A DNA stretch of 64,000 bases from Gemmatimonadaceae bacterium. Its GTDB lineage: Bacteria; Gemmatimonadota; Gemmatimonadetes; Gemmatimonadales; Gemmatimonadaceae. How positions within the stretch are numbered: position 1 is the stretch's first letter; each line of letters begins with the position of its first letter. Positions 25,457-41,812 of the stretch are shown piece by piece. The position numbers and the translations under genes are program-made. The DNA lies in contig JAICLZ010000002.1 of the NCBI GenBank assembly GCA_025929535.1, positions 18,565 to 82,564 of the forward strand, written 5' to 3'. The notes under the pieces are model-generated. The model was not told where the DNA came from. It saw only the letters and a list, made by a program, of their open reading frames with translations, and made no database searches.

Positions 25457-26271
25457 TAGCGGATGAGCATGAAGAAGCGATTGAAGCGGATCTTCCAGTC
25501 CTGGGTGTCGAACGAGAAGTAGATGAAGAGCGGGCGGCCGCGCACGTTCGCGAGCGGAGCAAAGCCGTAGTACCGGCCGTCGACGGACTCGTAGCGGTTG
25601 TCGCCCATGCTCATGAGGTGCGCGGGCGGAACGAGGAGCGGGCCCCAGTTGTCGTGCGACGGGGTGGCGGGCGGCGACCCGAAGCGCGAGCCCTTCACCT
25701 CGAAGCGATGCTGCCAGCCATAGTACGGCGAGCTGTCGTCCTGCGCGAGCGGCGCCGGGCTCGCACCGAAACCCTGCCGCTGCGCGATGCCGTTCACGTA
25801 GAGCATTCCCTGTCGCATGTAGAGCGTGTCGCCGGCAACGCCCACGGCGCGCTTCACGACTATCGGCGTGGGATCATCGGGAGAGAAGGGACAGCTCGTG
25901 TTCGGAATGCAGTGCTGCGGCGGCGACTCGTAGACGACGATGCTGCCCCGTTTCGGCGTGGTGAAGCCGGGGAGCTTGAGATTCGTGAACGGGATGTGCG
26001 GCCCGTACGACAGCTCGTCGACGAAGAGAAAATCGCCCACGAGCAGCGTCGGCTCCATGCTCTCCGACGGAATGTGGTAGGCCGCGATCAGGAAGATGCG
26101 GATGAAGATGAAGATCGCGACGGCACTCGCGAGCGACGTGAGCGAGGCGCGCGAGAAGAGTGGCTCGCGCGGGCCGCGGGGCGATCGCGCGGCGGCGACT
26201 ACGGATCGTTTGGGCGGTGTGCGGGTGTTGCGCTTCTTGGCTGCCACTCGACTGGAGAGCTGAGGGAACAC
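25456..26271 (-). CDS. lepB: Signal peptidase I
   Basis: Catalytic Ser box IPSESMEPTL, Lys box VVKRAVGVAGD, and the GDNRYESVDGRYYG box. Confidence 0.9.
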   Translation of the reverse strand: MFPQLSSRVAAKKRNTRTPPKRSVVAAARSPRGPREPLFSRASLTSLASAVAIFIFIRIFLIAAYHIPSESMEPTLLVGDFLFVDELSYGPHIPFTNLKLPGFTTPKRGSIVVYESPPQHCIPNTSCPFSPDDPTPIVVKRAVGVAGDTLYMRQGMLYVNGIAQRQGFGASPAPLAQDDSSPYYGWQHRFEVKGSRFGSPPATPSHDNWGPLLVPPAHLMSMGDNRYESVDGRYYGFAPLANVRGRPLFIYFSFDTQDWKIRFNRFFMLIR

Positions 26272-26329
26272 ACTGGAGCGGACGCTCGATATTCCGCGCG
26301 GGATCGGTGAGACACAAGCCCTCCCGTGT

Positions 26330-26381
26330 GCTGCATCGAGGGATGCAGCGAGGGGGCGCCCCGGATCGAGAGCGCCCCCTC
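26330..26381 (-). terminator. Tandem GC-rich hairpins downstream of the SWIB gene (candidate intrinsic terminator, no U-tract)
   Basis: GAGGGGGCGC (26350..26359) pairs with GCGCCCCCTC (26372..26381). GCTGCATC (26330..26337) pairs with GATGCAGC (26342..26349). Both stems are perfect. Confidence 0.4.
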
Positions 26382-26405
26382 CACCTATGTTCGCGACACC
26401 GGGAA

Positions 26406-26759
26406 CTACTTGATGTGCTTGTTGACGAGCTTCGTCATCTCGAACATCGAGACCTGCTTCTTCCCACCGAACACCCGTCCGAGCTTCTCATCTGCGTTGA
26501 TGTTGCGACGGACTTTCGCATCCTGGAGGCCGTTCTTCTTGATGTACTGCCAGAGCTTCTTCGTGATCTCGGTGCGGGGGAGCGGGCCCGAGCCGACCAC
26601 CGCGGCGAGCGCCTCATCCGGCTGCATCGGCTTCATGAACGCGGCGTTCGGCGTGCGCTTCTTCTTCGCGGGAGCCTTCTTCGCGGCTCTCCTCACCGTC
26701 TTCTTCTTGCTCGCCTTCTTCGCGCCCTTCTTCGCACTGCTCTTCTTTTTTGTAGCCAT
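26406..26759 (-). CDS. SWIB/MDM2 domain protein with Lys-rich histone-H1-like N-terminal tail
   Basis: The tail is MATKKKSSAKKGAKKASKKKTVRRAAKKAPAKKKR. The SWIB core follows (LAAVVGSGPLPRTEITKKLWQYIKKNGLQD...FEMTKLVNKHI). Confidence 0.8.
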   Translation of the reverse strand: MATKKKSSAKKGAKKASKKKTVRRAAKKAPAKKKRTPNAAFMKPMQPDEALAAVVGSGPLPRTEITKKLWQYIKKNGLQDAKVRRNINADEKLGRVFGGKKQVSMFEMTKLVNKHIK

Positions 26760-26997
26760 CGAGGATTCTCCGGAGTGGTGAAAGGATCTCGTTCATTCGT
26801 GCGGGAACGGGTCCGTCGAAGGCGGAAGGTATAGGGAGCCACGAAGGATGCAATAGGGCGAGACGACTCTGACGCCCGTGGAGAAGGCGATTTTCGCCCA
26901 TGGCGGGCGCTTCGCCATCGGGTGGAGGCACCCTGCACGAGTCGATTTTCCGCCCGGGGAAGCGCGGAATGAGCCGCGATTCGAGCGGCGCATTCGT

Positions 26998-27019
26998 ACT
27001 GCAATCGCACTGCAATCGC
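26998..27019. repeat. 11-bp tandem duplication ACTGCAATCGC x2
   Basis: Exact direct repeat read from the sequence. Confidence 0.8.
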
Positions 27020-27192
27020 GCGAGTGCGTGAGCGAGTCGAATTCAATTCGCGCCGTCGCTGGAGATCGCGAATCGCACCTGCTCTTCGAACGCGGATGCG
27101 AAGCCGCGCGAGAAACCGCGAGAGAAACTGCACGGGAAAATGCGCGTGCACGGATGTCGCACCGTCGAATCACGGATCCAGGATCGCACGCC

Positions 27193-27236
27193 TCGGGCGT
27201 GCGTCGGGCATGCGTCGGGCGTGCGTCGGGCGTGCG
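27193..27236. repeat. 11-bp tandem repeat TCGGGCRTGCG x4
   Basis: Four consecutive units with one G/A difference. The last unit pairs with the following GCACGCCC to form a hairpin. Confidence 0.85.
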
Positions 27237-27768
27237 TCGCACGCCCATCGCGCGTACATCGCACCTACGCACGCGACTCACGAAACGTGCGTAGTCGCGC
27301 TCAGCACGATGCGACCTGCCATCGAAACGATCGCGCGCATGATTTTCGCGCAGAGCGACCCTCGATCTCGTATACTGATCGAATCGAACGTAATTCGTGA
27401 TGCAGGCCACATTGCGCTGTCCACCGGCAAAAGGAAGGGAACGTAGAAAGCATCTCGGGTACTAGGCAGGACGTCGGCGTCGTCGGGCGAGCGCACTCTT
27501 TTTTCGAGTGAACGGTGACGCGGTGGCCGCAGCCGAGGTTTCTCTCGGTTATGGACTCGAAAAACAGCCGAGTTGTGACGGACTCGTCCCATACGGCTGC
27601 GGGAACATTCCTGGCATCCCGAGCATCAAGAAATTTATTCCTCGGCCCGTTAGAGGAAGCAGCGATTCGTAATTTTTGGGCTCGCCGTGTGCAATATGGT
27701 ATTTCGTCGTGCGAATCTCTCCGGCCGTGGCTCCCGCCGCGCTCGGTCATCCTTCCGCCGTCGAGCAA

Positions 27769-29331
27769 ATGATCCCTCGCACTGCTTTGGTCGTCTACGG
27801 TATCGCGCTGCTCCTGCTGTCGCTGGTCAGCCTCAATCGCTACGTACTCGTTTCGTTCTATCGCCGCAGTCGCCCACGCTGGCTCGAGCACCCGGCCGCG
27901 CTCGAAGACAGCGAGCTTCCCCACGTCGTCGTGCAGTTGCCGATCTACAACGAGCGCTATGTGCTCGCGCGACTGCTGCGATCCGCCACCGAGCTCGACT
28001 ATCCGCGCGAGCGCCTCTCCATCCAGGTCCTCGACGACTCCACCGACGACACCGTGGAGCTCGCGCGCAGTCTCGTCAACCGGTATCGCGCGCAGGGCTT
28101 CGACATCGCGCACGTCCATCGGAGTGACCGGGAAGGCTTCAAGAGCGGCGCGCTCGCGAACGGGCTGAATCACACCACGGCCGAATTCATCGCGCTCTTC
28201 GACGCGGACTTCGTCATCCCGCCGAACTTTCTGCGCGCGATGCTTCCCCACATGCGCGACCCGAAAGTGGGCATCGCGCAGGGACGCTGGGGGTATCTCA
28301 ACGAGGAGTACTCCACCCTCACCCGCGCGACGGTGATGGGCCTCGACGCGCAGTTCGCCATCGAGCAGACCGGCCGCTCCTACGGCGGCCTGCTCCTCGG
28401 CTTCAACGGCACCGGCACGCTGTTGCGCGCACAGTGCATTCGCGAAGCGGGCGGCTGGCAGCACGACACGATCACGGAAGACCTCGATCTCAGCTATCGA
28501 GCCCAGCTCGCCGGGTGGCGCATCGACTACGTCCCGAGTGTGGTCTGCCCGTCAGAGCTGCCGGCCGACGTGCACGGGCTCAAGGCGCAGCAGTTCCGCT
28601 GGACGAAGGGCACGCAGGAGACCGCGAAGAAGATGCTTCCGCCGCTCATGCGATCGGATCTCACTCCGTGGCTCAAGCTGCAGGGCGCATTGCACCTGCT
28701 CTCCAACGGCACGTATCCGATCCTGCTGCTCGTCGGCATCATCAACCCGCTCGTCGTCGTCATCGCGCACCACAATCACATCCGCATCGCCTGGCCCATC
28801 TCCGCCTACTTCCTCTTTTCGCTCTTCGGCACCTACTCGTATCACGCCGAGGCGGAGCGGGCGCTGCACAGGGACTGGTTGAAACGCATGCTCTATTTTC
28901 CGGCGTTTCTCGCGCAGTCGATCGGGCTGAGCGTCAACAACGCCAAGGCGGCAGTCGAGGCGTGGCTGGGAATCAAGTCGGGATTCATCCGCACTCCGAA
29001 GTATGACCTCACACGCCGCGAACAGCGGTGGCAGCAGCTCAAGTATCGGAGCCGCTTCAGCAGCACGGTGTTCTTCGAGCTCGCGATGGCGCTGTACACC
29101 ACCGCGGGACTCGGCTACGCGATCGTGACGCGCGAATACGGCGCCACGCCATTCCTGATTCTCTTCGGCGCGGGATACTGGCTCGTTGCCTGTTATTCGA
29201 TTCACCATGGCCTCGCGCGCGTGTCGTGGATCAAGCGTCCGAACGTGCATCACGTGGAGGAAATCGCGGAGGCGATCTCGCCCGAGCCGATGCGCGCCCC
29301 CGTGGCGATGTCCGCGATGTCGGAGCGGTAG
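27769..29331 (+). CDS. Processive family-2 glycosyltransferase (cellulose-synthase-like / CslA-type beta-glycan synthase)
   Basis: N-terminal TM helix. The GT2 signature is present: VLDDSTDD, FDADF, TEDLDLS and QQFRWTKG. Several C-terminal TM helices follow. Start at ATG 27769. Confidence 0.85.
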   Translation: MIPRTALVVYGIALLLLSLVSLNRYVLVSFYRRSRPRWLEHPAALEDSELPHVVVQLPIYNERYVLARLLRSATELDYPRERLSIQVLDDSTDDTVELARSLVNRYRAQGFDIAHVHRSDREGFKSGALANGLNHTTAEFIALFDADFVIPPNFLRAMLPHMRDPKVGIAQGRWGYLNEEYSTLTRATVMGLDAQFAIEQTGRSYGGLLLGFNGTGTLLRAQCIREAGGWQHDTITEDLDLSYRAQLAGWRIDYVPSVVCPSELPADVHGLKAQQFRWTKGTQETAKKMLPPLMRSDLTPWLKLQGALHLLSNGTYPILLLVGIINPLVVVIAHHNHIRIAWPISAYFLFSLFGTYSYHAEAERALHRDWLKRMLYFPAFLAQSIGLSVNNAKAAVEAWLGIKSGFIRTPKYDLTRREQRWQQLKYRSRFSSTVFFELAMALYTTAGLGYAIVTREYGATPFLILFGAGYWLVACYSIHHGLARVSWIKRPNVHHVEEIAEAISPEPMRAPVAMSAMSER

Positions 29332-29333
29332 CG

Positions 29334-29897
29334 GTGGTGCGGCGGGCGGCGGTCATTGCAGTGCTCTCGCTCGCGGTGGCGTGCAGCAACGACAGCGACA
29401 TGCAGGCGCCCAAGTCGGTGAGAATCGTTCCCGATCTCACCGGCTACAACACGATTCCCCTCGCCGCGTCGGACGCGCAGGGGCCGCAGACGCCGTCGGG
29501 CACGTTCCGCTACATGGTGGTGGACGGCGCGATCGACTGGTACCTGTTCGCGTCGGAGCTCGTGCCGGCGCGCGCGTATCGGGTGGTGCTCACGGCCGCG
29601 GATGGAAAGGAGTACGCGATCGCGAGCCGTCGGTCCGACGCCAAGGGCACGCTGGGCATGCACGGAGTGGAAACGGCGCTCAGGAACCGGCAGTGTGTCG
29701 GTGCGGAGGATCCGTCGCGGCGCACGCTGGAGTCGGCGCGCACGCTGCGCGTGTCGCTCAAGGGCGACGGCTCGGCCAGAGGCGCGAGCTCGAACGATCT
29801 GCTGGGCTCCCGCAGCGCGCTGCCCTGCGGCGGCAATGGCGACGGCAAGTTCGAGTACGTGCTGCAGTCGACGGACGCCGTGCCGGTGGCACCGTAG
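29334..29897 (+). CDS. Lipoprotein, member 1 of a triplicated unknown family (CVG ... C-x-GNGDG motif)
   Basis: GTG start at 29334 (or 29337), 3 nt after the GT2 stop. Lipobox LSLAVAC. It shares the motifs RAYRVVL, SDAKGTL, CVG and PCGGNGDGKFEYVL with 31423..32082 and 37857..38534. Confidence 0.7.
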   Translation: MVRRAAVIAVLSLAVACSNDSDMQAPKSVRIVPDLTGYNTIPLAASDAQGPQTPSGTFRYMVVDGAIDWYLFASELVPARAYRVVLTAADGKEYAIASRRSDAKGTLGMHGVETALRNRQCVGAEDPSRRTLESARTLRVSLKGDGSARGASSNDLLGSRSALPCGGNGDGKFEYVLQSTDAVPVAP

Positions 29898-29906
29898 CGT
29901 CCTACG

Positions 29907-31508
29907 CTATTGCTTCGTCGCATTGCGGGTATCGACCAGCGCCACGCGCACACCGGCACTCGCATCGGAGGTGTACTCGTCCTGCAGCACCGCCGCGTGC
30001 AGCGAGTCTTGCAGCTCCTGCGGCGCGAGTGTGTAGAGCGGCGAGCGATAGTCGATCACCACCCAGGTGCGGCCCGGCGGAAGCTTCGCGAGCTCGCGGC
30101 CGGCGGAGGCATCGGCAGCGAGGCCGACGACCGGGAAGTCGGGCGAGCCGAGATAGAATCGGAGCGGTGCGTTCATCTCGCGCGGCTGGATCATCACGCG
30201 ATCGCCGGGCCTGAGATCGTGCAGGATGAGGGCGGCGGTGGGCCGATAGTCGCTGTCGCGCGAGACCGCGGCTTTCGTCGTGCGCGTGCCGAGCAGCATG
30301 GCGGCTACGAGCACGGCGAGCGCGAGGAAGCGTGTCTGGCGATGGAGCGCGGCGAGGCCGTCGGCGAGTAACAGCAGCAGGAATGGAACGACGAAGAGGA
30401 AGTAGCGCTCGGTCTCGAGGGCGCGCGACATCGAGATGAGAACGGCGAAGGCGAGCGGAACGATGAGCGCGAACAGCAGCAGGCGTTGCGCACCTTGCAC
30501 GGATGGTGTTGCCGCAGGAGTCTGGCCAGCCTTCGAGCGAGCCCGTATGGTGGCGTCGCCGGCGGCCACGAACACGAGCAGAGTGAGGGGCTGGACTATG
30601 AGCAGCGTCGTGAATCGCCCCATCGACCCCGTGCGCTGCAGCAGATCATTGTACGCGAACCAGAAGTCGGAGGCGTAATAGTGCTGGCCGGCGACCACTG
30701 CAAAGGGAAACAGCAGGGCGGCGCGCAGCGAGCGCTCGAATCCGAGGGCCGAGCGCCACGCCTGCGAGGAAGCGGCGGTCCCGATGCTGACGAACGCGAG
30801 ATAGACTACGACGATGCCGAGAATCGCCAGCTGCGCCGCGACCCACGTGATCACCGTCCAGCGATTCGGGCGGGCGCGCGACTGCCACCAGAGCACCAGA
30901 GCGTCGAGATTCAGCGCCACGAGGAGCGTGCCGGCCACCGGGTGCGTGAACAGGAGAGTCATGCCGGCGATCGTGTACCAGAGGAGCGCCGAGCGCGAGC
31001 CCGTTACATCTCGCAATGCCAGGGCGCGCTCTCGCCACTCCACGTACGCCCAGAACGTGAGCAGCGCCACGAGGGAGGTCAGCATGTACATGCGCGCCTC
31101 CTGCGCGAAGTACAGCTCGAGCGGCGAGAGCGCAGTGAGCAGGGCGGCGATCAGTCCAGCGCGGCGCGAGAGCAGCTTCGCACCGAGCGCGTACACCGCC
31201 GGGATGAGCGCGATACTGGCCAGCACGGAAAATGCCCGCAGCGCGAAGACGGAGTCGCCGAAGGCGGAGATCCACGGCTTGAGGAGTACAAAGTAGAGTG
31301 GACCAACCGGACTTCCGCGCAGCTCGCCGATCAGCGTCGACCATGAGCGGCGTGCCACCTGCCACGAATTGGCCTCATCGAGCCAGAGATTCGCGGCAGT
31401 CAGGCCGTGCAGCCGGATAGCGATGGCTACACAGACGAATCCGAGCACCAGCCAGGACTCCCTTCCTACACCGCCGACTACGACGCGCTTCGATCCCGTG
31501 CGCCTCAT
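29907..31508 (-). CDS. GT-C fold glycosyltransferase, PMT_2/ArnT-like (GT39/GT83-type)
   Basis: A first-loop motif LWLDEANSW follows TM1. There are about 11 TM helices and a C-terminal soluble domain. The start is ATG 31508 (MRRTGSK) or 31538 (MNQNSAP); the ORF extends to 31709. Confidence 0.75.
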   Translation of the reverse strand: MRRTGSKRVVVGGVGRESWLVLGFVCVAIAIRLHGLTAANLWLDEANSWQVARRSWSTLIGELRGSPVGPLYFVLLKPWISAFGDSVFALRAFSVLASIALIPAVYALGAKLLSRRAGLIAALLTALSPLELYFAQEARMYMLTSLVALLTFWAYVEWRERALALRDVTGSRSALLWYTIAGMTLLFTHPVAGTLLVALNLDALVLWWQSRARPNRWTVITWVAAQLAILGIVVVYLAFVSIGTAASSQAWRSALGFERSLRAALLFPFAVVAGQHYYASDFWFAYNDLLQRTGSMGRFTTLLIVQPLTLLVFVAAGDATIRARSKAGQTPAATPSVQGAQRLLLFALIVPLAFAVLISMSRALETERYFLFVVPFLLLLLADGLAALHRQTRFLALAVLVAAMLLGTRTTKAAVSRDSDYRPTAALILHDLRPGDRVMIQPREMNAPLRFYLGSPDFPVVGLAADASAGRELAKLPPGRTWVVIDYRSPLYTLAPQELQDSLHAAVLQDEYTSDASAGVRVALVDTRNATKQ

Positions 31509-32082
31509 CGCGCTCGCGGGCGCACTGTTCTGGTTCATCTTCGTGCGTTCGTCATACGACCACCAATCGGAGTCGGTGCGGCCGGGAGCTGGAATGTCGC
31601 GGGTGACGCTCGCGCAGAAGGATGCCGCCTTCCGGCCGATTCCGCGCGCATCAGGCGGAGCAACCGGCGTCGTGTGGTATGCACACTCCGGTCCCGCGCT
31701 TCGGTTCATTCTGCGCGCGTACGGTCTGCAGCCGCAGCGCCGCTATCTGCTCGAGATACAGGCGGACGACGCAATCTACTCCGTTGCGAGCCATACATCG
31801 GATGCGCGCGGCCAGCTCGCGATCGACACGGCGCTGACGCAATTCGCCGAAGGCGCGTGTGTCGGCACGAACTACGATGCGCCACGCTCGGTGGCAGGGG
31901 CGCACAAGGTGAAATTCTGGATCAAGCGCGATGGCAATCCGCCGTCGGGCGTGTCGCCCAACTCGAAGGCCGGCGCGCCCGGCGCTGCGCTGCCGTGCCG
32001 CGGCAACGGCGATGGCGACTATGCGTACATGCTCATGGAGAACGAGATCGCGAACTTCACGGGCACCGGCGCAACGCCGTGA
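31423..32082 (+). CDS. Membrane-anchored exported protein, member 2 of the triplicated family
   Basis: TM anchor LIALAGALFWFIFV followed by GGATGVVWY, RRYLLEI, SDARGQL, CVG and PCRGNGDGDYAYML. Alternative starts are ATG 31369, GTG 31498 and ATG 31594. The stop is 3 nt before the GH38 start. Confidence 0.65.
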   Translation: MATQTNPSTSQDSLPTPPTTTRFDPVRLIALAGALFWFIFVRSSYDHQSESVRPGAGMSRVTLAQKDAAFRPIPRASGGATGVVWYAHSGPALRFILRAYGLQPQRRYLLEIQADDAIYSVASHTSDARGQLAIDTALTQFAEGACVGTNYDAPRSVAGAHKVKFWIKRDGNPPSGVSPNSKAGAPGAALPCRGNGDGDYAYMLMENEIANFTGTGATP

Positions 32083-32085
32083 CCC

Positions 32086-35000
32086 GTGCACGCTGACGTG
32101 CGCCGGCTAGCGGCACCGGCGCTCGCGATTCTTCTCTGGAGCTGCGAGCACGCCGTCCCCGGAACCGCCATCGCAACCGGCTCGTGCGACGCGCCCATCA
32201 GCGAGTGGCTGCTGGCTGGTCCCTTCCCGCTCGATACCGGACAGCTCCGGCTCGACCGGTCGGACATCGGTAATCCCGCGGAGCTGTTCGCGAGCGCGGG
32301 CGACAGCGTGCCCGGCACGCGCGCGATGCGCTGGCGCGCGGAGTCCTCCGATTCCCTCGGGCGCGTCGATCTGTACAGCGTGTTCCGCGATCCCAAGCTC
32401 GACGACCGCGCGGCCTACGCACTCACGTACATCCGCAGCCCGGAGGCGCGCACGGTGCGCCTCGCGGTCGAGAGCGATGATGACGTGGTGATCTGGCTCA
32501 ACGGCCGGCGCGTCTGGCGCCGCGAGATCGCACGCGAGCTTCGCTCCGGAGCGGACACGATCTCCCTCGCGCTCGCGAGCGGCGACAACCGTCTGCTCTA
32601 TCGCGTAGTCAATCGCGGCGGCGGCTTCGGTCTCGGTGCCCGGCTCCTGGCAATCAGCCGCGATCCGATCGGCGACTTGCGCAGCGAGATCTCGGCCGCC
32701 GCACGCGACGGCGCGCGCCGCGTCTCCCCGGGCGACACGGCGCGCGGACCTGCCGCTCGCGCCGCGGTGACCCTGGGTCCCGTCACAATGGCGCCGCGCG
32801 CCGAGATTCTTCGCGCGGACGCATCGCGCGATCGCGATGCCCGCCCGGCGTCGACGCTCGGCGTTCAGCTGCGCGTCTGTGCCACGCGCTGGGCGAGCAC
32901 GCGCGGGCGGCTCTCGCTCGACGTCGGGGCCTCGCGGGTGCCGCTGCCAACGGGAGAGATCGGACAACCCGTATCGGTGATCGCGAACGCGAGCTGGGAA
33001 GTGCTCGCGCGTGGAGCGCTCGATGGCAGTGCACAGGCCGTCGTGCGATCGGGAAAGAGCACGGTGTCGCACGTCGCGCTCCCGATCACCGCGGACGCGC
33101 TCCTCGAGCTCCTCTCGCATCCGATTACGATCGACCGCTGGCTCGTCTCGCGCGACACGACTCGCGCACGCGATCTCGAGCTGAGCGCCGTCACCGATTC
33201 CACCGAACGCCAGCACCTCCGGCGCATCGATGCCGATCTCGTCGTTCCTGCCGCGCTTGGCGGGCTCGCCCTCACCGCCGACGTGGCGGAGCTCGGCCCA
33301 CCGTACGCGGTGAGCGCGAATGGCGTGCGGCTCACGCCCGACTCGCTGGGTCGCGCGATGCTCTGCGATCCGTGCATCGCGGGCACGCCGCTCGGCATCG
33401 ACATCGAGCCGCACGGGCCGTGGTGGGATCCGCCGCGCCTCCGCGTACATGATCTCGGGTGGGCCGAGATTCGCGATGGGGCGGAGTGGGCGCGCTATTT
33501 CACCGGCGACTCATCGCTCGCGATCCCCGACAGCACGATCGCACGGCAGCTGTTGCGCAGCGTGCTCGATCCGTCGAAGACCGCCTATCACGCCCTGCTC
33601 GGAGAGTGGATCGCGCGTCTCACTCCGGCGAGCGCGCGCATTCGGCGCGACACCATCGACATCGTCGGTCACTCGCACATCGATGCCGCATGGCTCTGGC
33701 AGGTGAGCTCCGGACGGGACGCGATCCAGGCCACGTGGGCCACCGTCACGAAGCTCATGGCGAAGTACCCCGACATGCACTTCGCCGCCTCCTCGGCGCA
33801 ATACTACGAGTGGATCGAGGAGCAGGACCCGGCGCTTCTCGCGCGCATTCAGGCGCTCGCGAAGAGCAACCGCTGGGATCCGGTAGGTGGATGGTGGGTG
33901 GAGTCGGATGCGAACATCCCGTCCGGCGAATCGCTCGTGCGGCAGGCGCTCTATGGGCAACGCACCTTCACGCGCCTTTTCGGCAAGCCGTCGCGCGTGG
34001 CGTGGCTCCCGAACTCCTTCGGCTTTCCATGGTCGCTGCCGCAGATCCTTCGCAAGAGCGGCTTCGATTACTTCGTCACCGAAGAAATGCGCTGGAACGA
34101 CACGAACCACTGGCCGTCGGGGCTCGATACCTTCTGGTGGGAGGGAGTCGACGGCTCGCGCATCTTCACCGACATGATTTATGCCTACGATCACGACCTG
34201 GCACCGCGCCGGCTCGCCAAGGAGTTCGTCGTCACGCGGGACTCGAGTGCGTCGCGGAGAATGCTCACCGTGTACGGCGTGGGCGATCACGGCGGCGGAC
34301 CGACGATGCAGATGCTCGATCGCGCCCGCGCGCTGCAGCGCATTCCCACGTTCCCGGTCGTGCGACAGGCATCACCCGAGTCCTCGCTCGCGCGCATGCG
34401 CCTGGATGCGCGCGCCGGACCCGTGTTGCGCGACGAGCTTTATCTCGAGTTTCATCGCGGCACGTACACAACGCAGGCCAAAACCAAGCGCACGAATCGC
34501 GAGCTCGAAGCGCTCCTCGGTACCGCGGAAACCGCCGCAGCTCTCGCCGACGCTCCGTATCCGCGCGACTCGCTGCGCGCGGCATGGCATCACGTGCTGT
34601 TCAACCAGTTCCACGACATCCTCCCCGGCACGTCCATAGCGGAGGTGTACCAGGATGCCGCCAGGGACTACGCGCAGGCGCAGTCGAGCGCACGAGGGAT
34701 CCTCGAGCGATCGCTTCGCTCGCTCGCGGCTTCCCTGAACACGCGTCCCCGGCACGGCGGCGATACGCCCTATCTCGTATTCAACGCGTGCGGCCGCGCG
34801 CGCGGCGGCCTCGTTCGCATTCGTCTCACGGGCGAGAGAATCGTGCGCGATGCTCTGGGACAGGTGCTCCCGAGCGCCGCCGTGGACTCCGCGCTCGAGG
34901 TGCGCGTTCCGAACGTTCCCGCGCTGGGCAGTGTGCTCGTGTTCGTGGGCACGGCAGCCGCACCCTCCTCCGCCGTGAGCGCCCTTCACACGGCGGGCCG

Positions 35001-36042
35001 CGCCCGCGTGCTGGAGAACGATGCGCTGCGCGTCGAGATCGACTCGGCCACGGGGAACATCGATCGCCTCTACGACAAGCTGCACCACAGGGAATCGCTT
35101 TCGCCGAGTGCCGGAGCGCTGCTGCTCATGGCCGACGCACCCGCCGAGTGGCAGGCGTGGAACATCGACGATCTGCGCGGCAAGCGTGACTGGATCGATC
35201 AGGGCGTTCGCGTCGACTCCGTGGTGCGCACCCCGCTCGGGACATCGCTCACCGTGCATCGCGAGCGCGACAGCATTCGCGTGGCCGAGCGATACACGCT
35301 CCGGGACGCGCCCGCCCGTCTGGACATCTCATTGTCGATCGACTGGCGCGGGCGCGAGCGTCTGCTCAAGCTCGTGGTTCCCTTGGCCTTTCGCGTCGAC
35401 TCGACGCGCGCCGAGATTCCGTACGCCTCGATCGCGCGCCCGACGCGACTCGCAACGCGCCGCGACAGCGCGCGCTTCGAGACTCCGATGCAGCGATGGC
35501 TCGATGCATCATCGCGCGGCTTCGGCGTGGCGGTGGTGAACGATGGCAAGTACGGCTACAGCGCGAGCGGCGACACGCTGTTCATCACGCTGCTCCGAAG
35601 CGCCAAGTGGCCGGATCCGCATGCGGACATCGGGATGCAGACGATCGAATTGAGCATCGTCCCGCACCGCGGCGACTGGCGCGCACCCGAGATCCGCGAG
35701 GCGGCGGACGAGCTGAACTCGCCGCTCGTGGCCCAAGCGGTGAGCCCGCATTCTGGCATCACCGATCGTGGCTCGTGGTTGACGATACATCCCTCCTCCG
35801 TGGCGCTGGGTGCGCTCAAGCGGGCAGAGGACGATGACCGCGTGATCGTGCGTCTGGTCGAGACGAGTGGGCGCGCCACCGTGGCACAGTTGCGCTTCGC
35901 CTCGCCGATGGACGCGAGCGAGACGGACCTGCTCGAGCGCGATCTGCCGAACGGAGTACGAGGTCGCGGGCTCACGCTCGACGTGCCGCTCACGGGCTTC
36001 GAGATCAAGACGATCGCGGTGCGACAATCGCGGCAGCGGTGA
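32086..36042 (+). CDS. Exported GH38 family alpha-mannosidase-like protein with about 540-aa N-terminal extension
   Basis: Lipoprotein-like signal LAILLWSC. The GH38 core carries GHSHIDAAWLW (33667..), VGGWWVESDANIPSGESLVRQ, EFHRGTYTTQ and VGDHGGGP. The expected WLPD(S/T)FG reads WLPNSFG. Confidence 0.85.
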   Translation: MHADVRRLAAPALAILLWSCEHAVPGTAIATGSCDAPISEWLLAGPFPLDTGQLRLDRSDIGNPAELFASAGDSVPGTRAMRWRAESSDSLGRVDLYSVFRDPKLDDRAAYALTYIRSPEARTVRLAVESDDDVVIWLNGRRVWRREIARELRSGADTISLALASGDNRLLYRVVNRGGGFGLGARLLAISRDPIGDLRSEISAAARDGARRVSPGDTARGPAARAAVTLGPVTMAPRAEILRADASRDRDARPASTLGVQLRVCATRWASTRGRLSLDVGASRVPLPTGEIGQPVSVIANASWEVLARGALDGSAQAVVRSGKSTVSHVALPITADALLELLSHPITIDRWLVSRDTTRARDLELSAVTDSTERQHLRRIDADLVVPAALGGLALTADVAELGPPYAVSANGVRLTPDSLGRAMLCDPCIAGTPLGIDIEPHGPWWDPPRLRVHDLGWAEIRDGAEWARYFTGDSSLAIPDSTIARQLLRSVLDPSKTAYHALLGEWIARLTPASARIRRDTIDIVGHSHIDAAWLWQVSSGRDAIQATWATVTKLMAKYPDMHFAASSAQYYEWIEEQDPALLARIQALAKSNRWDPVGGWWVESDANIPSGESLVRQALYGQRTFTRLFGKPSRVAWLPNSFGFPWSLPQILRKSGFDYFVTEEMRWNDTNHWPSGLDTFWWEGVDGSRIFTDMIYAYDHDLAPRRLAKEFVVTRDSSASRRMLTVYGVGDHGGGPTMQMLDRARALQRIPTFPVVRQASPESSLARMRLDARAGPVLRDELYLEFHRGTYTTQAKTKRTNRELEALLGTAETAAALADAPYPRDSLRAAWHHVLFNQFHDILPGTSIAEVYQDAARDYAQAQSSARGILERSLRSLAASLNTRPRHGGDTPYLVFNACGRARGGLVRIRLTGERIVRDALGQVLPSAAVDSALEVRVPNVPALGSVLVFVGTAAAPSSAVSALHTAGRARVLENDALRVEIDSATGNIDRLYDKLHHRESLSPSAGALLLMADAPAEWQAWNIDDLRGKRDWIDQGVRVDSVVRTPLGTSLTVHRERDSIRVAERYTLRDAPARLDISLSIDWRGRERLLKLVVPLAFRVDSTRAEIPYASIARPTRLATRRDSARFETPMQRWLDASSRGFGVAVVNDGKYGYSASGDTLFITLLRSAKWPDPHADIGMQTIELSIVPHRGDWRAPEIREAADELNSPLVAQAVSPHSGITDRGSWLTIHPSSVALGALKRAEDDDRVIVRLVETSGRATVAQLRFASPMDASETDLLERDLPNGVRGRGLTLDVPLTGFEIKTIAVRQSRQR

Positions 36043-36074
36043 GGACCACTTCAGTCCTCGCGCTACCTGCCCTG

Positions 36075-37772
36075 CTACTCACCCGGCGGCGTTCGCACGC
36101 GGCAGATACGCGCAGGATCGAGGTGCCACCGCGTTGCCCATCGCGCGAGCGAGTCACCGACCGCACTGTCGGTGGTGGGCGTGTGCACACGAATGTCGTA
36201 GAACGTCCACGCAGGCGGCTGATTTCCGGAGTAGCCGTTGATCGTGGGCACGTCGCGCTCCATCGATGCCCACATCGCGTCGGCGTGGTAGTTCCAGGGA
36301 TCGTCCGCGCCGCCGATCGTCGTGTAGAGAAAGGCCCGGCATCCGGCGCCGATGCCGTTCGCCACGCGGGCGATTCGCGCACGGCCCTCACCCTTGTCGT
36401 ACGATGGCGGCTGCTGCATCTGCTCCGCCACGATTGCCGCGAGCATCGCCGTGACGATGAGCGCGCGCTTTCGCCGGTCTCTCCGCTTGAGCGCCAGCGC
36501 GGCGCGTGATGGTGGAATGCGCTGCGGTCGTGCGACCGCATCGATGAGAAGCGCGACACCGAGCGCCGCCGGGAGCAGGAGCGCGACACCGATGCGCGAC
36601 ACGGCGCGCAGCGCGGAGGCGCCGGGCACGACCAGGTAGATCAGGCGCCATGCGGTGAAGCCGCCGGGCCACTCCGTGGCGAGCAATGCCATGAGCAGCG
36701 GAACGATCACGGCGAACTGGACATCGCGCCGCCGTCGCGCGATCCAGAGTCCGATCGCTGCGCAGACGATCGTCGCGATGCCGAGGCCGAGCCGCTGCTC
36801 GTGCTCCATTGGAAGATCGTGAAAGGAGGCGCGTGCGGCGAGCCAGCCATAGAGCCAACTGCCGGGGCCCATGTATGCCCACGACTCCGGGCGCGGAAGC
36901 ATGCGCTCGACCACGAGAAAGCTCCGCGTGCCCACCTGCCGCTCGGCCTGCAGATAGTGTGTGATCAGCGGCGCGAGGAGAAGCGCGGACGCGAGCGCAG
37001 CGCCCGCGAGCGCTCCGAGATTGGCGCGAACGGCGAGCAGCGTGCGTCTTCGCGTGCCGGGCATTGCAACGGCCCACGCTGCCGCGAGCGCGAGCGCGAA
37101 GATGAGAAACCACGCGTAGTAGAAGCTGGAATAGAGTTGGGCCACCACCGCGCCGGCGAGGACGAACACCCACGCGGTGCGTCGCTCGACGCTCATGATC
37201 CCGGCACGAAGCTCGGGCTCGGGATCGAAGATCTCGAGGACTGCGAGAATGGCCAGCGCGATGTAGAAGAACGGAATCAACTGCGCGTGCATCACCTGCG
37301 CGGTGCGAACCGATGCGAACGAGAGGAGCATCGCGCCGGCAGCGGCCGCAACCGGCCGGCAGCGAAAGCCGCGCGAGAAGAGCAGCAGCGCCGATGCGAA
37401 ATTGAGCGTCGCGATCGTGAGGAGCCAGAGCTGAAACGCGGTGTCCGGAACGAAGCCCACGAGTCGCCACGGCCAGTAGAATGGCGCGACACCCAGAAGC
37501 ACGTCCGAGTACGCCGCCGTGTTCGGTGCCGGGTAGAACACGGGCGGACTCCAGAAGCGCTCGTGTCCCGGGAAGCCGAGCAGCCAGCGGTATCCGTGCT
37601 CGAGAATGTAGTTGTTGAGCCGGGTGTCGCCCCAATCGCTCTGGATGCGACGAAGGCCGGACAGGAGCATGGGATGGAATTGCAGCAAGATGCCCACGAT
37701 CCATGCTGCGACCGCGGCAGACACCGCTGCAAGCCTGCTCGCCCGCCGCTCGACGCGCCTCCCACCTTTCAC
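36075..37772 (-). CDS. Polytopic membrane protein with C-terminal soluble domain (possible unclassified GT-C-like enzyme)
   Basis: 565 aa with a GTG start and about 11-12 TM helices. The first extracytoplasmic loop reads SDWGDTRLNNYILEHGYRWL...FYPAPNTAAYSD. The function is inferred only from topology and context. Confidence 0.6.
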   Translation of the reverse strand: MKGGRRVERRASRLAAVSAAVAAWIVGILLQFHPMLLSGLRRIQSDWGDTRLNNYILEHGYRWLLGFPGHERFWSPPVFYPAPNTAAYSDVLLGVAPFYWPWRLVGFVPDTAFQLWLLTIATLNFASALLLFSRGFRCRPVAAAAGAMLLSFASVRTAQVMHAQLIPFFYIALAILAVLEIFDPEPELRAGIMSVERRTAWVFVLAGAVVAQLYSSFYYAWFLIFALALAAAWAVAMPGTRRRTLLAVRANLGALAGAALASALLLAPLITHYLQAERQVGTRSFLVVERMLPRPESWAYMGPGSWLYGWLAARASFHDLPMEHEQRLGLGIATIVCAAIGLWIARRRRDVQFAVIVPLLMALLATEWPGGFTAWRLIYLVVPGASALRAVSRIGVALLLPAALGVALLIDAVARPQRIPPSRAALALKRRDRRKRALIVTAMLAAIVAEQMQQPPSYDKGEGRARIARVANGIGAGCRAFLYTTIGGADDPWNYHADAMWASMERDVPTINGYSGNQPPAWTFYDIRVHTPTTDSAVGDSLARWATRWHLDPARICRVRTPPGE

Positions 37773-37856
37773 TGGCGCTCCCCTGCTCCTGATCTGGTGA
37801 AACGCGATGACGCGCGCAATGAGAGCGGAGGCATGTACAGCTAGACAATCCGGCTG

Positions 37857-38534
37857 TCAGTGCGAGCCGTGACCGGCCGCCGTATCCGCCGTGCCGGTCG
37901 TTCCCGTAAAGTCGGCCGTCGCGTTCTCGAGAAGCAGGTAATCGTAGTTGCCGTCGCCGTTGCCATGACAGGAAAGCTGTGCGCCGGGCGCCGACGGCGC
38001 GATTCCCGGCATCGTGCCGGAAGCCGGACTCCCGGCGCGCTTGATCCTGAACTTGACCGCGTGCGACCCAGTGACCGGTCGTGCCGCGTCGAAGTTTCTA
38101 CCCACGCACTCGCCTTCGCGGAATTGCGTGAGCGTCGTATCGATCGTGAGCTGGCCACGTGCATCCGGGGTGTAGGTGGCCACCGTGTAGTTCGCGCTGT
38201 CCACCTCGATCTCGAGCTCGTATCGGTGCCCGGTGGGAAGAGACCGGGCGTGCAGCACGAAATGCAGTGCCGGTCCGCGCGGTGCGTACAGCACCTCACC
38301 CGTGGCTCCGCCCTTGGAAGGTGGGATGGGATGGAAGGAAGAGTCCTTCTGCACGAGCTCGATACTCATCAAGCCATCGGCACGCGCCCGTGGTTTGCTC
38401 GATGACGTGCGCGATACGAAGAAAACGACGATAGCCGTTGCGACAAGCGATGGGACGAGCGCCCACAGCAGAGTCGCGATCGGGACTCGACGGTTGATCC
38501 CGGGGGAGAGCTCGTCTTGACTGTCCTTCGGCAT
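37857..38534 (-). CDS. Membrane-anchored exported protein, member 3 of the triplicated family
   Basis: SD GGAGG lies before ATG 38534. TM anchor LLWALVPSLVATAIVVFFV followed by GGATGEVLY, HRYELEI, PDARGQL, CVG and SCHGNGDGNYDYLL. Thr/Gly-rich tail. Confidence 0.7.
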   Translation of the reverse strand: MPKDSQDELSPGINRRVPIATLLWALVPSLVATAIVVFFVSRTSSSKPRARADGLMSIELVQKDSSFHPIPPSKGGATGEVLYAPRGPALHFVLHARSLPTGHRYELEIEVDSANYTVATYTPDARGQLTIDTTLTQFREGECVGRNFDAARPVTGSHAVKFRIKRAGSPASGTMPGIAPSAPGAQLSCHGNGDGNYDYLLLENATADFTGTTGTADTAAGHGSH

Positions 38535-38574: not shown

Positions 38575-38611
38575 CTATTCAAACAGACGATTAATACAGT
38601 TGTTTGAATAG
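38575..38611. promoter_or_regulatory. Candidate TetR operator upstream of the HlyD/ABC-2/TetR operon
   Basis: Perfect 11-bp inverted repeat: CTATTCAAACA (38575..38585) and TGTTTGAATAG (38601..38611). It surrounds an AT-rich 15-bp core containing ATTAAT. Confidence 0.5.
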
Positions 38612-38648
38612 TTTCCACGACCGCTCCAGAACTTCGAACACCGAGCTC

Positions 38649-39692
38649 ATGAATCGCAAGCGTCAGATCTTCGTTGCAGTCGCGCTCGTAGTAATGGCGA
38701 TCGCCGCCTACGCGGTCTTCGCCCCCGCAAAGCCACTCGTGCTGACCGGCATCGTCACCACCAACGATGTCATCGTCAGCCCACAGATCGGCGGCCAGGT
38801 GCAGAAGCTTCTCGTCAGCGAGGGCGACTCGGTATCGGCCGGGCAGCTTCTCGCCGTGATCGCCCCGGGCGAGCTCGCCGCCGACCAGGCCTACTATGCG
38901 CACAGCGCCGAGGGCGTGGCAACTGAGGTGCGGGAGAACGAATCTGCCGTTCGGTATCAGGCGCAGCAGATGACGCAACAGGTTCGCCAGGCGGAAGCCA
39001 CGGTCGCGAGCGCCGAGGCACAGCGCGCGCAGACGGCGGCCGACTACGCCAATGCACAGAGCAATTACGACCGCCTCGTGCCTCTCCTCAAGAGCGGTGC
39101 CATCTCGCAACAGACAGCCGACCAGCAGCGCACCGATCTCCTCGTCGCCAAAGCAAAGTCCGAAGCCGCCGACCGTCAGGTCGATGCCCAGCGTGCGGCG
39201 CTCGAGCTCGCACGAGGTCAGCAAGAGCAGGTCGCGATGAAGCGAAGCGCGCTCGCGGCATCGCAGCAGGAACGTGCCGCCGCCACCGCGCAGGCCGCAA
39301 AGGCGAACGTCCGTCTGGGCTACTCCGAGATTCGCGCGCCACTGGCCGGCATCGTCGACGTGCGCGCCGTGCGCGCGGGCGAAGTCGTTGCCGCAGGCGC
39401 GCCCATCCTGACGCTCATCAATCCCGACGACCTCTGGGTGCGCGCGGATGTCGAAGAGAGCTACATCGGCCGCATCAAGCTGGGCGATCACCTCGACGTG
39501 CGCCTTCCCTCGGGTGAAACGCGCAGGGCAATCGTCTTCTTCCGCGGCGTGGATGCGGGCTTCGCCACACAGCGGGATGTGAGTCGCAGCAAGCGCGACA
39601 TCAAGACGTTCGAGATCAGGTTGCGCATCGACAACAAGGATCGCCGCCTCGCCACGGGCATGACGGCGTACGTGCTCCTGCCGGTGTCGTGA
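38649..39692 (+). CDS. HlyD-family membrane fusion protein (YbhG-like)
   Basis: N-terminal TM helix, a lipoyl-like segment (QVQKLLVSEGDSVSAGQLLAVI), a long coiled coil, and IRAPLAGIVDVRAVRAGEVV. The start is ATG 38649 (or 38604). Confidence 0.85.
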   Translation: MNRKRQIFVAVALVVMAIAAYAVFAPAKPLVLTGIVTTNDVIVSPQIGGQVQKLLVSEGDSVSAGQLLAVIAPGELAADQAYYAHSAEGVATEVRENESAVRYQAQQMTQQVRQAEATVASAEAQRAQTAADYANAQSNYDRLVPLLKSGAISQQTADQQRTDLLVAKAKSEAADRQVDAQRAALELARGQQEQVAMKRSALAASQQERAAATAQAAKANVRLGYSEIRAPLAGIVDVRAVRAGEVVAAGAPILTLINPDDLWVRADVEESYIGRIKLGDHLDVRLPSGETRRAIVFFRGVDAGFATQRDVSRSKRDIKTFEIRLRIDNKDRRLATGMTAYVLLPVS

Positions 39693-40687
39693 TGCCGGCC
39701 GCGATCGACGTCATGCACATCGTCAGGAAGTTCGATGACTTCACCGCCGTGGACGACATCTCCTTCACCGTCCGGCGCGGCGAGATCTTCGGTCTTCTCG
39801 GACCCAATGGCGCGGGGAAGTCGACGCTCATTCGCATGCTCACGACGCTCATTCCGCCCACCTCCGGAACCGCGGAGGTGGATGGCATCGATGTGGTCAG
39901 GGACCCGAACGGCGTGCGGAAGGTCATCGGCGTCATTCCGCAGGCGCTCACGAGCGATCTCGAGCTCAGCGTGTACGAGAATCTCCTCATCTTCGCGAAG
40001 CTCTACGGCGTTCCTCGCGAGAATCGGAACAAGCTGATCGCCGGGCTGCTCGAGTCCGTGGAGCTGACGCAGTGGGCCAGCGAGCCGGTGAAGAAGCTCT
40101 CGGGAGGCATGCGCCGTCGCGTGGAGATCGCGCGCGGGCTCGTGCATAGTCCGCGCGTGCTCTTCCTCGACGAGCCCACCACGGGACTCGATCCCGTGTC
40201 GCGCGCGGCAGTGTGGGAGATGGTGAAGAAGGTGAAGGAACAGCACGAGCTCACCGTGCTGCTGACGACGCACTACATGGACGAGGCGGACAGCTGGTGC
40301 GATCGCATCGCGATCGTCGACCACGGGCGTCTCATGGCGCTCGACTCACCGCTGCGGCTCAAGGCATCCATTCCGGGCACGAACACGATCGAGGCGAGCT
40401 TCGGCTCGGCGCCGGCGGACTGGACCGAGCAGCTCGCGTCGCTCGCGGGCGTGGAGCGCGTGACCGGAGACGCGCACGTCGCGCGCATCGCGACGGACAA
40501 TGGCCCCGAGACCACGACCGCCATGTTCGCGGCCGCGGCGGAGGCCGGAGTCAGTGTGCTCTCCCTGGCCGTCGAGAGCACGACGCTCGACGACGTGTTC
40601 GTGCACTACACCGGCCGCCAACTGCGGGACGCGCTGCAGGAGCCGTCGGCGGCGGACCGCTCGATCATGATCAACCGCGGCCGATAG
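39689..40687 (+). CDS. ABC transporter ATP-binding protein (ABC-2/DrrA/YbhF-like)
   Basis: Walker A GPNGAGKST, signature LSGGMRRRV and Walker B VLFLDEPTTGLD. Confidence 0.9.
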   Translation: MMPAAIDVMHIVRKFDDFTAVDDISFTVRRGEIFGLLGPNGAGKSTLIRMLTTLIPPTSGTAEVDGIDVVRDPNGVRKVIGVIPQALTSDLELSVYENLLIFAKLYGVPRENRNKLIAGLLESVELTQWASEPVKKLSGGMRRRVEIARGLVHSPRVLFLDEPTTGLDPVSRAAVWEMVKKVKEQHELTVLLTTHYMDEADSWCDRIAIVDHGRLMALDSPLRLKASIPGTNTIEASFGSAPADWTEQLASLAGVERVTGDAHVARIATDNGPETTTAMFAAAAEAGVSVLSLAVESTTLDDVFVHYTGRQLRDALQEPSAADRSIMINRGR

Positions 40688-40696
40688 GAGGACGAC

Positions 40697-41812
40697 GTGC
40701 ATCGTACGTGGGCCATCATCGAGCGCGAGCTGCGGCGCTTCCGCCGCAGCCCGATGCTCATCGTCATGTCGCTCGTCATGCCGATCGTTCAGCTCATCGT
40801 GCTCGGCTACGCATTCGGCGGGCAGGTGAAGCATCTCAGGGTGGGGCTCGTCGACCAGGATCACGGCGTGCCCGCGGTTCGGCTGCACGAGCTCTCGAAT
40901 GCCGTCGCGTCGAACGCGCAGACCTTCACGCCGCAGATGTACAACGACCTGGGCACGGCGCTCGGCGATCTGCGGAATGGCCGCCTCAACGGCGTGCTCG
41001 CGATCCCGCCGGACTTCTCACGGCGGATGCTCGTGGGCAGCAATCCCCGCGTGGCGCTCATAGAGGACAACACCGACAACTTCGTGAGCGCGAGTCTCGC
41101 CGGCGCGTACTCGGGATTGATCACATCGTACAACCAGCCCGTGGCGTCGGGGCAGCGAACGGGCACGCAGACGTCGCTCGACGTCGTCGAGATGTATCCG
41201 TACGTCCCGTACATCCAGTACCTGCTGCCCGGCTCGATCGTGATGTCGATCTTCATGATGGTGATGATCGGCGGCGGCATCATCTTCGTCGACGACAAGG
41301 CTCGCGGGCTGCACGAGGGCTATCTCGTCACGCCGATCACGCGGCTCGAGCTCATTCTCGGCTTCAATCTGTCCGGGGCGATCAAGGCTGTGTTGGCGGG
41401 ACTCGTGCTGATGACGATCGGCTCGCTCATCGCCGGCGTGCCCAATCCCTTCGAGCCGCTCCGGCTGCTCCGGATGTTCGTGGTGATCGTGGTGACCGCC
41501 GTCGCGCTCGTGAGCATGATGTTCCTGTTCATGGTGCGCGTGAACGACCCGCTGATTCCGCGCGCGACGTTCGGCGTGCTCAACACCTTTCTCTACTTTC
41601 CGAGCGGCGCGGTGTATCCGACGCAGGCCTTCCCCGGGTGGATGCGCGCGATCTCGAAGATCGACCCGTTCACGTACGCCGTGCACGCACTGAAGAGCCT
41701 CGTGCTCAAGAACACGGGCTTCGGAGCGATCGGCCTCGACCTTCTCTTCCTCGCTCTCTTCTCGCTCGCGTCGATGACGCTGGCGACGAAGCTCTTCCGG
41801 CGCACGCTGTGA
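40697..41812 (+). CDS. ABC-2 type transporter permease (YbhR/YbhS-like)
   Basis: 371 aa with one N-terminal TM helix, a periplasmic loop and five C-terminal TM helices. Confidence 0.85.
   Translation: MHRTWAIIERELRRFRRSPMLIVMSLVMPIVQLIVLGYAFGGQVKHLRVGLVDQDHGVPAVRLHELSNAVASNAQTFTPQMYNDLGTALGDLRNGRLNGVLAIPPDFSRRMLVGSNPRVALIEDNTDNFVSASLAGAYSGLITSYNQPVASGQRTGTQTSLDVVEMYPYVPYIQYLLPGSIVMSIFMMVMIGGGIIFVDDKARGLHEGYLVTPITRLELILGFNLSGAIKAVLAGLVLMTIGSLIAGVPNPFEPLRLLRMFVVIVVTAVALVSMMFLFMVRVNDPLIPRATFGVLNTFLYFPSGAVYPTQAFPGWMRAISKIDPFTYAVHALKSLVLKNTGFGAIGLDLLFLALFSLASMTLATKLFRRTL

Follow-up and report, generated by a model that had tools for sequence, protein, structure and literature searches.

A 64-kb stretch of a Gemmatimonadaceae genome (contig JAICLZ010000002.1, positions 18,565 to 82,564; hereafter the window) carries a cluster of seven genes between positions 27769 and 38534 (Table 1). 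The cluster encodes a membrane-embedded glycosyltransferase of family 2 (GT2), two polytopic membrane proteins that resemble or are presumed to resemble GT-C glycosyltransferases, a protein of glycoside hydrolase family 38 (GH38), and three small proteins called P1, P2 and P3. An initial annotation, made from the sequence letters, had described a glycan-handling cluster in which each of three small paralogs is attached to a different large protein. All seven open reading frames (ORFs) were located at or very near the coordinates given there. Homologous loci are referred to below by L numbers and further proteins by four-digit P numbers.

Table 1. Genes of the cluster, with coordinates in the window.
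Feature	Coordinates	Strand	Size and remarks
GT2, membrane-embedded, cellulose/hyaluronan-synthase type	27769..29331	+	520 aa from ATG 27769; longest ORF from TTG 27676
P1, lipoprotein-type family member, GT2-partnered clade	29334..29897	+	187 aa; family HMM E 5.5e-58
GT-C-like polytopic membrane protein, family A	29907..31508	-	about 533 aa from 31508; alternative starts 31538, 31709
P2, transmembrane-anchored family member	31498..32082	+	194 aa from GTG 31498, or 219 aa from ATG 31423
GH38 alpha-mannosidase-family protein	32086..36042	+	1318 aa; lipobox-like LLWSC
Polytopic membrane protein, family B, presumed GT-C-like	36075..37772	-	565 aa; about 9 hydrophobic segments
P3, transmembrane-anchored family member	37857..38534	-	225 aa

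The tight spacing reported for the small genes is present in the sequence. The GT2 stop codon ends at 29331 and the GTG of P1 follows at 29334 after a 2-nt gap, with a GGAG 8 nt upstream of this GTG. The P2 stop codon ends at 32082, and a 3-nt gap separates it from the GTG of the GH38 gene at 32086. P3, whose stop lies at 37857, is separated by 84 nt from the start of the 565-aa membrane protein at 37772. The ratio of nonsynonymous to synonymous substitution rates (dN/dS) is 0.18-0.29 for P1, 0.11-0.20 for P2 and 0.16-0.26 for P3, including the N-terminal 55 residues of P3. The corresponding values for GT2 are 0.04-0.13. Because dN/dS in the three small genes lies between 0.11 and 0.29, they are real genes under purifying selection. 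The exact proteins are recorded in databases from a Gemmatimonadaceae metagenome-assembled genome, GT2 as "glycosyltransferase" and the P proteins as "hypothetical protein".

P1, P2 and P3 belong to an unnamed family of membrane-tethered periplasmic beta-sandwich proteins that is found almost only in Gemmatimonadota. Their mutual homology, already stated in the initial annotation, is clear in pairwise comparison: P2 and P3 share 49% identity (E 4e-64), P1 and P2 share 31% (E 7e-17), and P1 and P3 share 25% (E 5e-12). Searching the six-frame translation of the window with a hidden Markov model (HMM) of the family recovered exactly three copies. The family is rare: with a threshold of E <= 1e-3, an exhaustive HMMER search of 1.84 billion representative sequences returned 76 clusters. 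When one genome per species was scanned, 31 loci came up. All of them belong to Gemmatimonadota, and the named records of the family likewise come from this phylum. One possible member from outside Gemmatimonadota (P0163) was set aside, as it is known from a contig of only 1.1 kb and is uninformative.

The family had been described as unrecognised, and the searches agree. P1-P3 have no Pfam or NCBIfam match at E <= 0.1, their database names are all "hypothetical protein", no family could be assigned to any of 46 members scanned against Pfam and NCBIfam, and the best hit of a profile search against the PDB had an E value of only 0.06. The nearest signal leads to RskA_C (PF10099), the extracytoplasmic domain of anti-sigma-K factors. 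The family member P0144 matches this Pfam domain over residues 17-127, which cover the transmembrane (TM) helix and the first half of the sandwich (E 2.7e-6, 28.1 bits), and P3 matches an NCBIfam anti-sigma model (E 0.0011). RskA_C proteins share with the P family a TM helix that is followed by a beta-rich extracytoplasmic domain. The P domain could then be a related periplasmic sensor that regulates the neighbouring enzymes in response to an envelope signal. This is very unlikely. Only two of the 46 members match RskA_C at E < 1, none reaches the curated cut-off of 29.4 bits, and P1-P3 of the window have no Pfam match to it. The C-terminal half of the P domain, with its cysteine pair and GNGDG loop, lies outside the matched region. 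The cytoplasmic tails are 17-25 residues long and hold no anti-sigma domain, and the locus contains no sigma-factor gene; its neighbours are glycosyltransferases, GH38 and HlyD/ABC genes. A sensor would also leave unexplained why several paralogs are each tied to a different enzyme. Membership of the P family in RskA_C was rejected, the signal coming from the single sub-threshold member P0144.

The P proteins were predicted to be extracytoplasmic, which agrees with a lipobox-like LAVAC near the N-terminus of P1 and with an N-terminal TM helix in both P2 and P3. In an AlphaFold2 model of P3 (mean predicted local distance difference test, pLDDT, of 84), residues 19-42 form a TM helix and residues 56-211 a confident beta-sandwich. 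Across the family, conservation is strongest in the periplasmic domain of about 150 residues, which holds the disulfide and the GNGDG loop. A cysteine pair (CVG ... C-x-GNGDG-x-[YF]), several tyrosines and aspartates, and a loop rich in Ser, Thr, Pro and Gly are conserved. Disorder is predicted for this loop (residues 166-188), which has low pLDDT; even so, conservation within each type of P is highest here, and the types have different loops. The C-terminal tails of P3 and P2 are of the TGTTGT and TGTGATP type, respectively. Conservation extends into the membrane. The TM helix of P2/P3 scores 0.64, as against 0.65 for the globular domain and 0.31-0.45 for the flanking segments; in P2 the TM segment has an identity of 0.71 and the flanking tail plus linker 0.41; and residues L26, P28, A32, T33 and R42 of the P3 helix are invariant across 72-74 relatives. 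Such conservation of the helix between variable flanks, with Pro, Thr and Arg invariant, argues for contacts inside the membrane and against a passive anchor. In P0184, a separate protein of 327 aa with a low-GC type of composition, the first half of the P domain is matched by two repeats in tandem (E 2e-6). The protein shows the motif GGASGTLHY...F.F.F.A..L.P..Y.LIYY.DPWPG, belongs to no Pfam family and may mark a wider superfamily.

P domains are associated with glycosyltransferases, and the most constant partner is GT2. The D,D,D,QQFRW signature reported for the window GT2 can be read in its translation as VLDDSTD, FDADF, TITEDLD and QQFRWTKG, together with a FIRTPKY loop. The protein matches a range of GT2 families in Pfam with E values from 1e-28 to 3e-20, led by Glyco_tranf_2_3 (1e-28) and Glyco_trans_2_3 (1e-25), and its best sequence match in the PDB is BcsA (1.7e-16). 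An AlphaFold2 model of a fused ortholog with 53% identity (P0222; GT2 part with pLDDT mostly above 85) was matched by Foldseek to BcsA (1e-21) and hyaluronan synthase (1e-13), followed by CesA and Chs1. PcManGT (6yv7), a close non-processive relative, is matched as well (1e-14 by sequence, 9e-16 by fold). By its motifs and the predicted fold of this fused ortholog, the window GT2 is BcsA/hyaluronan-synthase-like, and it may synthesise and translocate a polymer.

The initial annotation had named conserved linkage to glycosyltransferase or glycosidase genes in related genomes as a check on its reading. In 35 of the 35 loci that hold GT2, a P domain is either fused to it or encoded no more than 340 nt away. 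The adjacency survives inverted orientation and a GT2 identity of 49-54% (L030, L031, L033, L043). Natural GT2-P fusions form at least 38 protein clusters of 697-794 aa, and they are single ORFs in the DNA of L020, L021, L023, L026, L028 and L029. In these fusions, the cytoplasmic FxRTPK loop of the GT2 part is followed by two TM helices, after which this part ends; next come an Arg-rich linker, a hydrophobic segment and the P domain. Since the GT2 part ends in the cytoplasm and an extra hydrophobic segment follows, the P domain of the fusions is placed in the periplasm, as in the lipoprotein P1. All 38 fusions (P0143, P0196-P0234) carry a cysteine in a lipobox-like context of the LSCGG or LLLHC type after the hydrophobic segment, at residues of about 516-604 (for example L026:12167-14740, minus strand). 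The fusion may therefore be cut and lipidated at this internal site, which would release a P lipoprotein.

The linkage could in principle be nothing but inherited synteny within one bacterial family, with P serving an unrelated periplasmic function. All loci do come from a single phylum, and many share the same flanks (SWIB, signal peptidase and amino-acid permease genes on one side, the HlyD-ABC-TetR genes on the other). An explanation by synteny is nevertheless hardly credible, as the adjacency outlasts inversions and rearrangements (L010, L030, L033, L043, L045), changed flanks and GT2 divergence to 49% identity, and as gene fusion has occurred repeatedly.

The remaining P copies are associated with other membrane proteins. 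The loci hold four unrelated GT-C-like families of about 480-630 aa with 7-11 hydrophobic segments. Family A of the window has about ten such segments and, after the first TM helix, in the first extracytoplasmic loop, the acidic motif NLW(L/Y)DE(A/G)NSW, which is conserved in four members at 34-45% identity. This protein had been described as a PMT_2/ArnT-type GT-C encoded head-to-head with P2. The head-to-head arrangement was found, but the assignment is weak: the scores for PMT_2 (E 0.0055, 17.4 bits) and for a TMEM260-like family (E 0.0029, 17.9 bits) are both below curated cut-offs. The ortholog in L001 reaches a score of 22.6 bits against a cut-off of 26.1, and a PDB sequence search with the family A protein gave no match. 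Family B adjoins a P3-type gene in the window and in L004, L006, L007 and L009. The precomputed annotation of its L001 ortholog (74% identical) lists DUF6311; Pfam scans of the window protein and of that ortholog gave no match, and no paper mentioning DUF6311 was found in the literature. Families C and D, which do not occur in the window, replace or join the two window families elsewhere (L002:9795-11498, L002:11495-12940, L045:4724-6229, L020:7096-8997). Family C matches PMT_2 above the cut-off in L002 and has an HDEAAY motif, and family D matches PMT in L020 (E 8e-6) and has a YQQDGGTHF motif. With GT-C-like families swapped or added in this way, the locus is a mosaic with exchangeable transferases.

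Copies of P with a TM anchor adjoin all four GT-C-like families. A neighbour-joining tree of the P domains separates a GT2-partnered clade from a GT-C-partnered clade, and partners are kept across deep divergence. P1 falls in the clade whose members all adjoin or are fused to GT2. The group that is head-to-head with family A persists in the tree from loci at 36% GT-C identity up to the window. P2 lies beside family A in every locus that has family A, head-to-head in all of them but L010, where the two genes are tail-to-tail after a rearrangement. It had been proposed that each enzyme has one dedicated paralog. This describes the window but not other loci, such as L001 (two P genes for three enzymes), L030 (two for five) and L033 (one for three). 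Two Gemmatimonas-like loci (L025:9297-12248, L026:9229-12189) encode a protein of 983-986 aa with DUF5916 and CBM9_1 domains between their third P copy and their GT2-P fusion; L025 carries the label Gemmatimonas aurantiaca. The protein may belong to the same system as an outer-membrane or glycan-binding component.

At the boundary between P2 and family A, the longest ORFs (P2 on the plus strand, the GT-C-like gene on the minus strand) share 287 nt (31423-31709) in head-to-head orientation. A genuine antisense gene overlap of this length was rejected as mostly an open-frame artefact. Both antisense frames stay open because third codon positions are common to both in a genome of 66% GC. The true coding extents were judged by the ratio of first- to second-position substitutions, which indicates that the GT-C-like gene is coding up to about 31422-31497 and P2 from about 31498. 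The likely starts are the GTG at 31498 for P2 (194 aa) and 31508 or 31538 for the GT-C-like protein. The divergent starts thus abut or overlap, the true overlap being probably 11-116 nt, and the arrangement is kept across loci.

GH38 had been paired with P2 in the initial annotation, and this pairing did not hold up. The gene follows P2 in 10 loci and is absent from L002, L005, L006, L009, L011, L018, L020-L024 and L027-L031. It is missing from about 15 loci that keep P2, and the constant partner of P2 is the family A GT-C. Being missing from about half of the loci, GH38 is an accessory and not a core gene. Its identity is clear from Pfam matches over residues 524-1310 (Glyco_hydro_38N 1.6e-74, Glyco_hydro_38C 1.2e-44, Alpha-mann_mid 4e-27, Glyco_hydro_38C2 2.6e-11). 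The first 520 residues (32086-33645) match no Pfam family. This N-terminal part is called as a separate gene of 363 aa in L003, and an exported GH38 with such an extension is unusual. The mannose theme at this locus comes only from GH38 and from the sub-threshold PMT-like scores.

GT2 enzymes invert an alpha-linked nucleotide sugar to form a beta-linkage, and GT-C enzymes that use polyprenyl-phosphate-mannose form alpha-mannosides, the linkage cleaved by GH38. The reading preferred here is that P is a non-catalytic periplasmic subunit that holds the product of GT2 and presents it to the GT-C enzymes, in a role similar to that of BcsB. It is put forward tentatively, with somewhat less than even confidence. 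GT2 would polymerise and export a beta-linked glycan, which P1 would take up at the periplasmic exit in the manner of BcsB. The TM-anchored paralogs would dock to the GT-C enzymes through their conserved TM helices and offer them the same glycan, which would be decorated from lipid-linked donors. In loci with GH38, this enzyme would trim alpha-mannosyl decorations. It would act on the decorations and not on the backbone, because GT2 gives beta- and GT-C alpha-linkages, a stereochemistry taken from knowledge of the families.

The closest known parallel is BcsA-BcsB, including the fused AcsAB of Komagataeibacter. In both systems, a membrane GT2 with D, DxD, TED and QxxRW motifs and a BcsA-like fold has a membrane-tethered, non-catalytic periplasmic partner that is encoded directly downstream or fused, depending on the species. 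The partners themselves are different. P is a single beta-sandwich of 150 residues anchored at its N-terminus by a lipid or a TM helix, whereas BcsB has about 700 aa, four domains and a C-terminal TM helix. No match to the BcsB family was found in Pfam or NCBIfam for P1-P3 (E <= 0.1) or among the 46 family members. Scans of the window ORFs found no PilZ domain and no BcsC-like exporter, and the additional P paralogs for GT-C enzymes have no Bcs counterpart.

Several observations weigh against a role of P as a glycan-presenting subunit. Foldseek matched the P3 model to generic Greek-key sandwiches only (Cu,Zn superoxide dismutase, neocarzinostatin and CARDB, E >= 0.03) and to no carbohydrate-binding module. 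The AlphaFold2 model of a natural GT2-P fusion has a disordered linker of 80 residues, a predicted template modelling score of 0.66 and no confident docking. The number of P genes does not track the number of enzymes in many loci, and neither an outer-membrane exporter nor a sugar-nucleotide gene was found among the window ORFs scanned. Orthologs of GT2 with 51-53% identity occur in Ignavibacteria, Bacteroidota and unclassified metagenome-assembled genomes, where they have no P and no GT-C neighbour. A lipoprotein gene of the LptE family (PF04390) lies immediately upstream of these orthologs in eight of eight loci (L035-L040, L047, L048; for example L035:7424-7954 and L047:6273-6830), which suggests that GT2 has a conserved envelope role outside Gemmatimonadota. 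Given these orthologs, GT2 may be a housekeeping enzyme and may possibly make a glycolipid rather than an exopolysaccharide. Finally, the conserved disordered Ser/Thr/Pro-rich loop of P fits the role of a glycan acceptor equally well.

According to this latter alternative, the P proteins are dedicated acceptor or carrier glycoproteins. The TM-anchored copies would be O-glycosylated on the Ser/Thr/Pro-rich loop or the Thr-rich tail by the adjoining GT-C, GH38 would remove alpha-mannose, and the product would be a membrane-anchored glycoprotein coat. For PMT-like GT-C enzymes, the modification would likely be O-mannosylation. The GT-C partners show weak PMT_2, PMT and TMEM260-like signals and a conserved acidic DE motif. 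The type-specific conservation of a loop with low pLDDT and the TGTTGT- and TGTGATP-type tails of P3 and P2 point in the same direction. The eukaryotic GT-C enzymes TMEM260 and TMTC1-4 are known to O-mannosylate specific beta-sandwich domains, and the alpha-mannosides made from polyprenyl-phosphate-mannose are the substrate linkage of GH38. The likeness to the PMT, TMTC1-4 and TMEM260 systems thus consists of a weakly PMT_2/PMT/TMEM260-like GT-C beside an Ig-like beta-sandwich as the candidate acceptor, with an alpha-mannosidase in the locus. It is limited by the Pfam scores of the window proteins, which are all below curated cut-offs, and by the oldest and most constant partner of P, which is GT2 and not GT-C. 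The fusion of a substrate to a synthase that works on the cytoplasmic face (38 clusters) has no easy explanation, GT-C-like genes outnumber P genes in several loci, and GH38 is dispensable. An acceptor role is possible but doubtful. A further reading, in which P domains are dedicated, genetically paired acceptors or primers for bacterial GT-C enzymes and form a prokaryotic counterpart of TMEM260/TMTC beta-sandwich O-mannosylation, appears unlikely. Here, the copy fused or coupled to GT2 would be released as a lipoprotein at the internal lipobox-like site, carrying a glycan started by the synthase.

It is also conceivable, though improbable, that the P proteins serve in assembly or stability as obligate structural subunits of the polytopic enzymes, which they would contact within the membrane without ever touching the glycan. 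The conserved TM helix with its invariant Pro, Thr and Arg, the translational coupling and fusion with GT2, and the lack of a recognisable sugar-binding fold are all in line with such a function. Some GT2 enzymes are known to have a small membrane partner whose only function is activation, for instance GacI with GacJ and PgaC with PgaD. Lipoproteins of the P1 type, however, have no TM helix and could reach only periplasmic loops, which are very short in the modelled GT2. It also speaks against such a factor that the periplasmic domain of 150 residues, disulfide and GNGDG loop included, is conserved best across the whole family.

The combination of a GT2 with one or more GT-C enzymes is also found in GtrABC, ArnC/ArnT, CsbB/YfhO and GacI-GacJ-GacL, and in the Gac system the small membrane protein GacJ partners the GT2. 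The GT2 of these three-component systems is short, makes polyprenyl-phosphate sugars and lacks both QxxRW and a BcsA-like channel, whereas the window GT2 has processive synthases as its first matches. At this locus no flippase gene was seen, and P is a sandwich folded in the periplasm instead of a small TM peptide. No paper on the P family or the locus was found in the literature. Nor did the libraries and papers searched describe an arrangement in which a synthase-type GT2 and several GT-C enzymes share a periplasmic module by way of paralogs.

Synthase-type GT2 and GT-C enzymes build much of the bacterial cell surface, and their non-catalytic partners are known in only a few model systems. 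The locus offers a clean and testable case of a new partner module, which is fused to the synthase in some genomes, separate in others, and duplicated to serve at least four unrelated GT-C-like families. By sequence and predicted structure, the P family is probably a new accessory part of a glycan-building machine, akin to the known accessory subunits of membrane glycan-assembly enzymes. Knowing its role would bear either on how a glycan is handed over from a synthase to periplasmic decorating enzymes or on a dedicated bacterial glycoprotein system. It would also inform on the envelope of Gemmatimonadota, a soil phylum that is abundant yet has hardly been studied. Confinement to one phylum limits the impact, as does a role that is predicted from sequence and models.

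The surroundings of the cluster were surveyed as well. Rfam and tRNA scans of the window gave no match to RNA genes. Upstream of GT2, about 1 kb (26760-27768) holds no convincing ORF and no Rfam match; relatives have an M20 peptidase gene at this position. GC content is lower over 26001-28000 (0.62), and near 27195-27250 the sequence GCGTGCGTCGGGC is repeated in tandem in three to four copies. Beside P3, positions 38604-42474 encode an HlyD-like adaptor, an ABC ATPase, an ABC-2 permease and a TetR/CecR regulator, and a gene with an S24 peptidase domain (LexA-like) follows at 42500-43252. The HlyD-ABC-TetR block keeps its synteny in relatives; it resembles an ordinary efflux module with no link to the glycan genes.

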